Source: Escherichia phage XJA18-XJ-2024. From it: a stretch of DNA of 50,572 nucleotides. Of the stretch, positions 39,870 through 40,079 are shown piece after piece. The notes beneath the pieces were generated by a model. That model saw only the letters and a list, made by a program, of their open reading frames with translations, had not been told where the DNA came from and did no database searches. The stretch lies in sequence record PV584117.1; one strand, written 5' to 3'. Position numbers and translations under genes: made by a program. Numbering within the stretch: position 1 is the first letter of the stretch; every line of letters begins with the position of its first letter.

Positions 39870-40079
39870 ATGGAGCAGGATAATTTTTGGACCCGTTATT
39901 TTGCAGCGCTTGATGCTGGACTTAGTGCCGAATGGTGCATCAAGGTTGCATATAAAGAAATAACACTTGATGAGGCTCTTGGCGATATGGATATGAATGC
40001 TGAAAGCGAATACGATCCTAACTTTGAATTACCTAGTGATGATATTAATGAAGACGACGACGATTATATTCCCTGGTAA
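39870..40079 (+). CDS. small acidic protein with SSB-tail-like C-terminus
   Basis: 69 aa; C-terminus NEDDDDYIPW resembles the SSB acidic tip DDDIPF. Confidence 0.5.
   Translation: MEQDNFWTRYFAALDAGLSAEWCIKVAYKEITLDEALGDMDMNAESEYDPNFELPSDDINEDDDDYIPW

Follow-up and report, generated by a model that had tools for sequence, protein, structure and literature searches.

[quoted passage not shown] Partner proteins read the tip through a hydrophobic pocket that takes up the side chain of the terminal Phe, a basic lip that contacts its alpha-carboxylate and a basic ridge that faces the Asp residues further upstream (PMC10164576). Loss of the terminal Phe, or the ssb-113 change of Pro176 to Ser in E. 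coli SSB, greatly weakens partner binding (PMC10164576; PMC10238739). Canonical pockets anchor the carboxylate of the Phe, and by the rules of recognition an extra residue after it should not be tolerated (PMC10164576). Free peptides of the tip bind partners with a Kd in the low-micromolar range (PMC10164576), so that a monomeric decoy carrying such a tip would need high expression or avidity.

Phage proteins carry tails of this kind as well. Work on T7 in the Richardson laboratory is said to have described acidic C-terminal tails ending in Phe on both the gp4 helicase-primase and gp2.5. The gp4 tail provides a precedent for an acidic tail in the style of SSB, with an aromatic residue at its end, on a replication protein other than an SSB, where it docks a replisome component; this tail belongs to a large enzyme, and its binding partner is T7's own polymerase. 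The work on the C-terminal Phe of gp2.5 is among the studies cited in PMC9917605. Another relevant protein is Bas52_0087, a phage OB-fold SSB ending in FDDDIPF, which is the DRT10 trigger linked to SbcB/ExoI (bioRxiv 10.64898/2026.04.29.721553). Its tip has been proposed to engage SSB partners of the host, among them exonuclease I, and the preprint shows that a disturbance of host ssDNA metabolism by tips of phage origin is already suspected. Finally, Ocr, ArdA, Gam and gp5.9 are small, very acidic phage proteins that block host DNA-processing enzymes via their binding site, and they do so as folded mimics of the DNA surface.

Here we describe a 69-residue phage protein, referred to below as the tip protein, which resembles each of these systems in part. 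In comparison with the T7 proteins, the tail is the main feature of its 69 residues, its phage has no annotated polymerase and the sequences are not homologous. Two OB folds make Bas52_0087 a true SSB-like protein, whereas the tip protein has no OB fold and is unrelated to it in sequence. It shares small size and strong acidity with Ocr, ArdA, Gam and gp5.9; however, it is predicted to be mostly disordered, selection acts on its terminal peptide, and family, PDB sequence and fold searches found no homology to these four proteins. Our search of the literature found no description of an SSB tip carried without an SSB, nor of the gene for the tip protein. From the sequence comparisons reported below, we tentatively read the tip protein as a putative tail-only mimic of the SSB tip that may act as a decoy or as an adaptor.

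Results

A small acidic protein with an SSB-like C-terminus

The window, that is, the whole stretch of 50,572 nucleotides from Escherichia phage XJA18-XJ-2024 (PV584117.1), is the genome of a T1-like siphophage (Tunavirus, Drexlerviridae). Over the 2 kb around the gene for the tip protein, the identity is 98.9% with Shigella phage Sfin-3 and 96.8% with Escherichia phage LeonhardEuler/Bas13. The original prediction described a 69-residue protein ending in NEDDDDYIPW at this position, and both the open reading frame and its translation, MEQDNFWTRYFAALDAGLSAEWCIKVAYKEITLDEALGDMDMNAESEYDPNFELPSDDINEDDDDYIPW, confirmed it. The protein contains 20 Asp and Glu residues against three Lys and Arg residues, which gives a net charge of -17 and a pI of 4.05, and the mean pI across the family is 4.1. 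It matches PHROG 9085 (phrog_9085, function unknown) with E = 1.5e-44, and the gene is a "hypothetical protein" in all related phage records that we looked at. The features discussed below are collected in Table 1.

The phage's own SSB had also been predicted to end in DDDIPF; its coordinates proved right, and the gene is on the minus strand. The plus strand of the same interval yields no open reading frame. In the related phages Klebsiella phage KPP2020 and Escherichia phage tonijn, the SSB tails read ...DFDDDIPF, a tip identical to that of the host protein. We scanned the whole window in six frames for stop-to-stop segments of at least 40 codons (n = 549). Just two segments, the tip protein and the SSB, end in [ILVMF]-P-[FW], as compared to about 0.4 expected from composition. 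The same pattern of two genes with this ending is repeated in LeonhardEuler, KPP2020 and tonijn.

Table 1. Coordinates of the features described in the text (positions in the window).
Feature	Coordinates	Strand	Evidence or remarks
Phage's own SSB, ends ...QSTFDDDIPF (canonical SSB tip)	3410..3826	-	Translation; LeonhardEuler ortholog annotated single-stranded DNA binding protein
Dcm-like cytosine methyltransferase	37042-37812	+	Heads the plus-strand block containing the tip gene
Promoter-like intergenic element, ATAGCACGA...TAGCTA-N-TATATT with hairpin	39565..39625	+	Hairpin z-score -3.9; upstream of the gene pair
Partner gene, basic 74-residue protein (pI about 10)	39642..39866	+	PHROG 4344 (phrog_4344); 3-nt gap, upstream of the tip gene, same frame
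Tip-protein CDS, 69 residues	39870..40079	+	ATG to TAA open reading frame; PHROG 9085
N-terminal three-helix head (residues 1-37; helices 6-15, 20-27, 33-37)	39870..39980	+	AlphaFold2, pLDDT about 69-80
Near-invariant motif A-L-G-x-M-D-M-x-x-E-S (residues 36-46)	39975..40007	+	Column entropies
Acidic linker, predicted disordered (residues 47-65), with D-P-N-F (residues 49-52) and NEDDDD run	40008..40064	+	Coil, pLDDT 54-60
C-terminal tip Y-I-P-W, SSB-tip-like element	40065..40076	+	Kept in 167/169 homologs and 68/69 IMG/VR loci
Second copy of the promoter-like element, right after the tip-gene stop	40080..40140	+	Hairpin about 40104-40131, z-score -4.1
DUF3987 "DNA helicase", 543 residues	40590..42221	+	Pfam DUF3987, E = 3.4e-42; PHROG 2373 "DNA helicase"

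The tip is conserved at the level of the peptide

To evaluate the conservation of the C-terminus, we assembled homologs in several ways. A search by word index through 5.8 billion proteins and a subsequent profile search gave a set of 148 homologs, 146 of which end in [Y/C]-[I/F/M/L/V]-P-[F/W]; the two exceptions appear to be truncated or frameshifted. When 1.84 billion cluster representatives were searched exhaustively with a HMMER profile, just 43 hits were returned, which makes this a small family, limited to phages. In this search, the tip was found in 25 of the 26 full-length short forms (60-102 residues) at the 50%-identity cluster level. When the full-length short forms were pooled, 167 of 169 retained the tip, with 162 ending in xP[FW] and five in xPF[WL]. 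Among 70 IMG/VR loci, 69 encode the tip protein and 68 of these have kept the tip. As far as the tip itself is concerned, the prediction that the C-terminal motif would be conserved among homologs was therefore borne out in each of these sets.

The proline does not vary in our alignment (A2), nor does it in any of the 76 unique tails, and its exceptions are single variants, ...DEISF (P0166) and ...RCFQF. The residue that precedes it, which in SSB is Ile or Leu, is in the 76 tails Ile in 52, Phe in 17, Leu in three, Val in two, and Met and Glu in one each; the protein of the window has Ile. The residue that follows is Phe in 43 tails and Trp in 33, and here the window has Trp. The tails of several distant members are closer to the SSB tip than is that of the window: KFDDGIPF, CKDEIPF, CLDEIPF, GDEIPW, YDDFIPW and DFDQLPF. 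As judged from the sequences, the residues under the strictest selection in the family, Pro and the terminal aromatic residue, are those that have been shown to matter for SSB.

In Tunavirus, the stop codon of the tip gene abuts promoter-like DNA, and we considered whether conservation of this DNA could account for conservation of the tip. The codons for the tip differ by lineage (ATT-CCC-TGG, ATG-CCG-TTT, TTC-CCA-TTC, GTC-CCT-TTC-TGG, ATC-CCG-TTC, CTA-CCA-TTT and GTA-CCA-TTT), the DNA 3' of the tip is unrelated between lineages, and the linker in front of it cannot be aligned between genera. The variation of the codons, together with the unrelated downstream DNA, indicates selection on the peptide and rules out a cause at the DNA level. 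These results also bear on a chance resemblance, in which the tip would have no specific role. Such a resemblance has to be weighed for a motif of just three residues that was picked after reading the sequence; however, retention of the tip in nearly all members and loci, with differing codons, unalignable linkers and less than 50% identity between members, leaves chance with a close to negligible probability.

A different docking motif was considered as well. The consensus for binding to the beta sliding clamp is of the QL[SD]LF type, with a conserved Gln followed by Leu-x-Leu-Phe near the C-terminus. The last 10 positions of the 76 tails contain neither a conserved Gln nor an L-x-L, and have the invariant Pro instead, so this candidate was rejected.

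A conserved helical head carries the tip on a disordered linker

We built an AlphaFold2 model of the tip protein on an alignment of 28 sequences. The N-terminal head is modeled as three short helices, and residues 38-69 are predicted to be coil with a pLDDT of 54-66. The invariant residues of the head are R9, G17, L18, V26, A27, L33, A36 and L37. Conservation in the family is highest not at the tip but in the motif A-L-G-x-M-D-M-x-x-E-S at residues 36-46, in which the column entropy is 0 at A36, L37, G38, M40, E45 and S46. The stretch that follows ALG comprises 33-65 residues, depends on the lineage in both length and composition, and cannot be aligned between lineages.

The tip protein has no significant match in Pfam, NCBIfam, a PDB profile search or Foldseek. 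Two matches to the head, SbcC_Walker_B (E = 0.036) and SgrT (E = 0.12), were weak and below threshold and were disregarded. The model contains no beta structure and no OB fold. The tip protein is therefore not an SSB, and membership in the SSB family was ruled out on these grounds and because the protein is strongly acidic throughout.

Relatives of a longer form (143-309 residues) have the head and its ALGDMDMDxES motif in common with the tip protein; they carry an additional domain at the N-terminus and another C-terminus, and do not have the tip. This shows that the tip can be separated, as a module joined to a head that is conserved independently of it. The long forms are metagenomic (P0170, P0175, P0178, P0183-P0185, P0187, P0188 and P0190) and have no significant domain match in Pfam. 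They end either in a conserved ...GGEDDNTPPLEVLMAGGWxxWEYQNEKNAWLDSR or in a zinc-ribbon-like CPACN...CPACDHLYF.

The linker and the acidic run vary between lineages

The original prediction emphasized an acidic tip resembling that of SSB. This holds for the window, where DDDD and Tyr precede IPW, and for the other lineages without the Cys cluster described below; it does not hold for the family as a whole. The acidic run is limited to the non-Cys members, which make up about 40% of the family, and the tail PGKDYIPW of Sertoctavirus SRT8 contains no such run. In 98 of the 169 members, a CxCx5CxxC cluster takes the place of the acidic run and directly abuts the tip, for example in CGCNFDPSCKRCFPF. 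The mean net charge of the last 12 residues is -0.3 in the Cys class as compared to -4.9 in the non-Cys class.

These values bear on a reading in which charge is the functional property and the tip is of minor importance. The tip protein would then be a general acidic nucleic-acid mimic or an anti-restriction or anti-defence protein, acting in the manner of Ocr and ArdA or in that of the SSB and T7 gp2.5 tails in DNA-binding grooves. The net charge of the protein and the low mean pI of the family are in line with this possibility, and so is the setting, since this small gene has other small genes without assigned function as neighbours and shares its block with a methyltransferase and replication genes. 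However, charge leaves unexplained an invariant Pro and terminal aromatic residue that persist across unalignable linkers, the acidic segment, with its predicted disorder, would present no rigid DNA-like surface, the tails of the Cys class are near neutral, and comparisons of sequence and fold matched no known mimic. We regard a general acidic mimic as improbable. Membership in the Ocr/ArdA type of DNA mimic was rejected, since neither a family nor a structure match was obtained and disorder is predicted for the acidic part.

The CxCx5CxxC cluster suggests a zinc knuckle. If the four Cys residues were zinc thiolates, we infer that the knuckle would be negatively charged. The cluster is seen outside Tunavirinae, for example in loci L004 (2501-2725), L005 (2501-2725) and L007 (2468-2722), and in Tunavirinae and several other lineages it has been lost and the acidic run is present. 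The family could thus be read as a small zinc-binding regulator with an ancestral knuckle, of which the tip would be a part and the Tunavirus forms degenerate descendants. The presence of the cluster in more than half of the pooled members and in most deep lineages speaks for this reading, as does the direct abutment of the last Cys on the tip (C-[FIM]-P-F). On the other hand, the tip persists in every lineage that does not have the four Cys (Tunavirinae, P0152, P0154, P0156, P0162, P0173, P0177 and P0181), which implies that it works without the knuckle and makes a zinc-binding regulator highly improbable. A precursor of the RiPP type was also rejected, because the neighbours include no modifying enzyme such as a radical SAM protein, a cyclodehydratase or a lanthionine synthetase, and the Tunavirus members have no Cys core.

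Two further features of the tails concern the receptor of the tip. In the Webervirus type, one residue is added after the Phe (CIPFW, CVPFL), a change seen in 14 of the 69 viral loci and in five of the 169 pooled members. The carboxylate of the Phe is therefore not free in the 14 loci that end in ...PFW or ...PFL. Furthermore, the variants of the tip (IPW, FPF, IPFW) follow the phage lineage and not the host, whereas the SSB tips of the same phages are constantly DDDIPF. This is the pattern expected for a receptor that is encoded by the phage and co-evolves with the tip.

The tip gene forms a conserved pair with a basic partner

The partner gene lies directly upstream, and its stop codon is located 3 nt 5' of the ATG of the tip gene. 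Its ortholog occupies the same position in 65 of the 69 viral loci, and the pair was found in Tunavirinae, Tempevirinae, Webervirus, Kyungwonvirus and one metagenomic relative. The partner gene is present in 679 phage records. Several database records name its product "polyribonucleotide nucleotidyltransferase", a designation that is unsupported, since the protein has no Pfam match. The AlphaFold model of the partner shows an alpha-beta3-alpha-beta fold with weak similarity to YkuJ and no informative fold match.

The two reading frames of the pair are in frame with each other and are separated by TAA-TTA alone (39864-39872). One GenBank annotation, P0062 of Shigella phage vB_SsoS_008 (98 residues), reads through this junction (…SWSYQMEQDNF…) and is truncated at …GNMDMD; it probably reflects a sequencing or annotation error, though it joins the two genes in a natural in-frame fusion. 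Both genes also occur, at 42-56% identity, in about 20 unannotated records of about 47-50 kb labeled "Campylobacter phage" (MG065643, MG065665, MG065680, MG065687 and others). These "Campylobacter jejuni" phage records resemble T1-like enterobacterial phages, so that the named host may be an error or a result of contamination.

Downstream of the pair are a gene for a 138-residue protein of unknown function and then the DUF3987 helicase, which every lineage examined has downstream of the tip gene within this block. The Dcm-like methyltransferase gene varies in position. In Tempevirinae, Webervirus and Kyungwonvirus (L003-L007), it directly follows or overlaps the tip gene; in Tunavirus, six small genes separate the two, and the methyltransferase gene is located about 2 kb upstream of the tip gene. 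Among the genes annotated in related genomes are those for a primase, two helicases, an SSB, an exonuclease VIII-like protein and an Erf-like protein; no DNA polymerase is annotated in the related T1-like phage genomes.

The arrangement of these genes bears on the main rival to SSB-tip mimicry, namely that the tip anchors a phage-only complex by docking onto the 74-residue partner, the DUF3987 helicase, the recombination proteins or the Dcm-like methyltransferase, with no SSB partner of the host taking part and the likeness to SSB being convergent or coincidental. The conserved pairing of a basic with an acidic protein, encoded with a 3-nt gap or an overlap, speaks for such a complex, and in most genera the tip gene abuts or overlaps the methyltransferase gene. 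The dependence of the tip variants on phage lineage beside constant SSB tips points in the same direction, and the residue added after the Phe in the Webervirus type fits a co-evolving receptor better. However, the fold of the putative tip-binding partner gives no informative match, and adjacency to the methyltransferase is lost in Tunavirus. In addition, the residues under the strongest selection are exactly those that define the SSB tip, and several lineages have independently arrived at D-[DE]-I-P-F. We consider a phage-only complex rather unlikely.

A repeated promoter-like element brackets the pair

Two copies of a promoter-like element bracket the partner and the tip gene, and the second closes the two-gene module. 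The 9-mer ATAGCACGA at the start of the element occurs in eight exact copies in the window, against about 0.4 expected, at positions 38213, 39565 and 40080 on the plus strand and at positions 32813, 31266, 30746, 29373 and 1013 on the minus strand. The copies are always co-oriented with the local genes and usually lie directly 3' of a stop codon. The element as a whole is about 55 nt long and consists of ATAGCACGA, A-TTGCTA-N22-TATAGT/TAGAAT, often with a TG-extended -10, followed by a ribosome-binding site and a start codon. Its spacer holds a hairpin of 7-12 bp with an RNA fold z-score of about -4. From its sequence, the element looks like a phage promoter family, possibly with operator or processing hairpins.

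Discussion

The comparison of the tip protein with the C-terminus of SSB reveals likenesses as well as differences. In common with SSB, the tip protein has a C-terminus of the form hydrophobic-Pro-aromatic with an invariant penultimate Pro; acidic residues stand just before the tip in the protein of the window and in other non-Cys lineages; and the tip is placed on a poorly conserved linker of variable length that is predicted to be disordered. In contrast to SSB, the tip protein has no OB fold or any other DNA-binding domain. The terminal residue in the window is Trp, and position -4, which is Tyr in the window, is Tyr or Cys and not Asp. Most of the family does without the acidic run, and some members have an extra residue after the Phe. 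Finally, SSB presents four tails, a number that the tip protein may or may not share. The SSB-tip reading of the original prediction, an SSB-type docking motif on a non-SSB scaffold, is partly supported: conservation of the tip and selection at the protein level stand in its favor, whereas the acidic run did not prove to be family-wide and some of the variants speak against a strictly canonical host pocket.

On the preferred reading of the protein as a tail-only mimic of the SSB tip, we infer that the tip would insert into the site of an SSB partner that comprises the hydrophobic pocket and the basic lip. Two modes of action can be envisaged. As a decoy, the tip protein would occupy SSB-tip pockets as a competitor; as an adaptor, it would tether the ligand of its head to an SSB-partner protein, and the co-transcribed basic partner of 74 residues would be the leading candidate for this ligand. 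The tip protein would not replace SSB, since it has no DNA-binding domain and the phage encodes a real SSB with a host-identical tip. The same host-identical SSB tips, together with the absence of an annotated polymerase, imply that reading of the tip matters in T1-like phages. A more specific proposal is that the pair is a two-gene module of Drexlerviridae in which the tip of the acidic member plugs the SSB-tip pockets of host genome-maintenance enzymes and thereby silences them or, with the partner, recruits them to complexes of phage replication or recombination; we think this possible but somewhat doubtful.

If the proposal of SSB-tip mimicry is true, the tip protein would be the first described viral protein that acts by mimicry of the docking peptide of the SSB interaction hub. 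Mimicry of a hub's peptide motif would then be a new strategy of takeover, different from DNA mimicry and from enzyme inhibition, and the tip protein itself could serve, as it stands, for probing or inhibiting the SSB interactome. Should its tip prove to bind a phage protein, the two genes would still form a conserved module worthy of a name. For the biology of the T1-like phages, which have no polymerase by annotation, mimicry of the SSB tip could help to explain how they commandeer or silence the machinery of the host. It would also provide a testable function for a "hypothetical" gene pair in hundreds of sequenced phages of E. coli, Shigella, Klebsiella and Salmonella that are therapeutic candidates.
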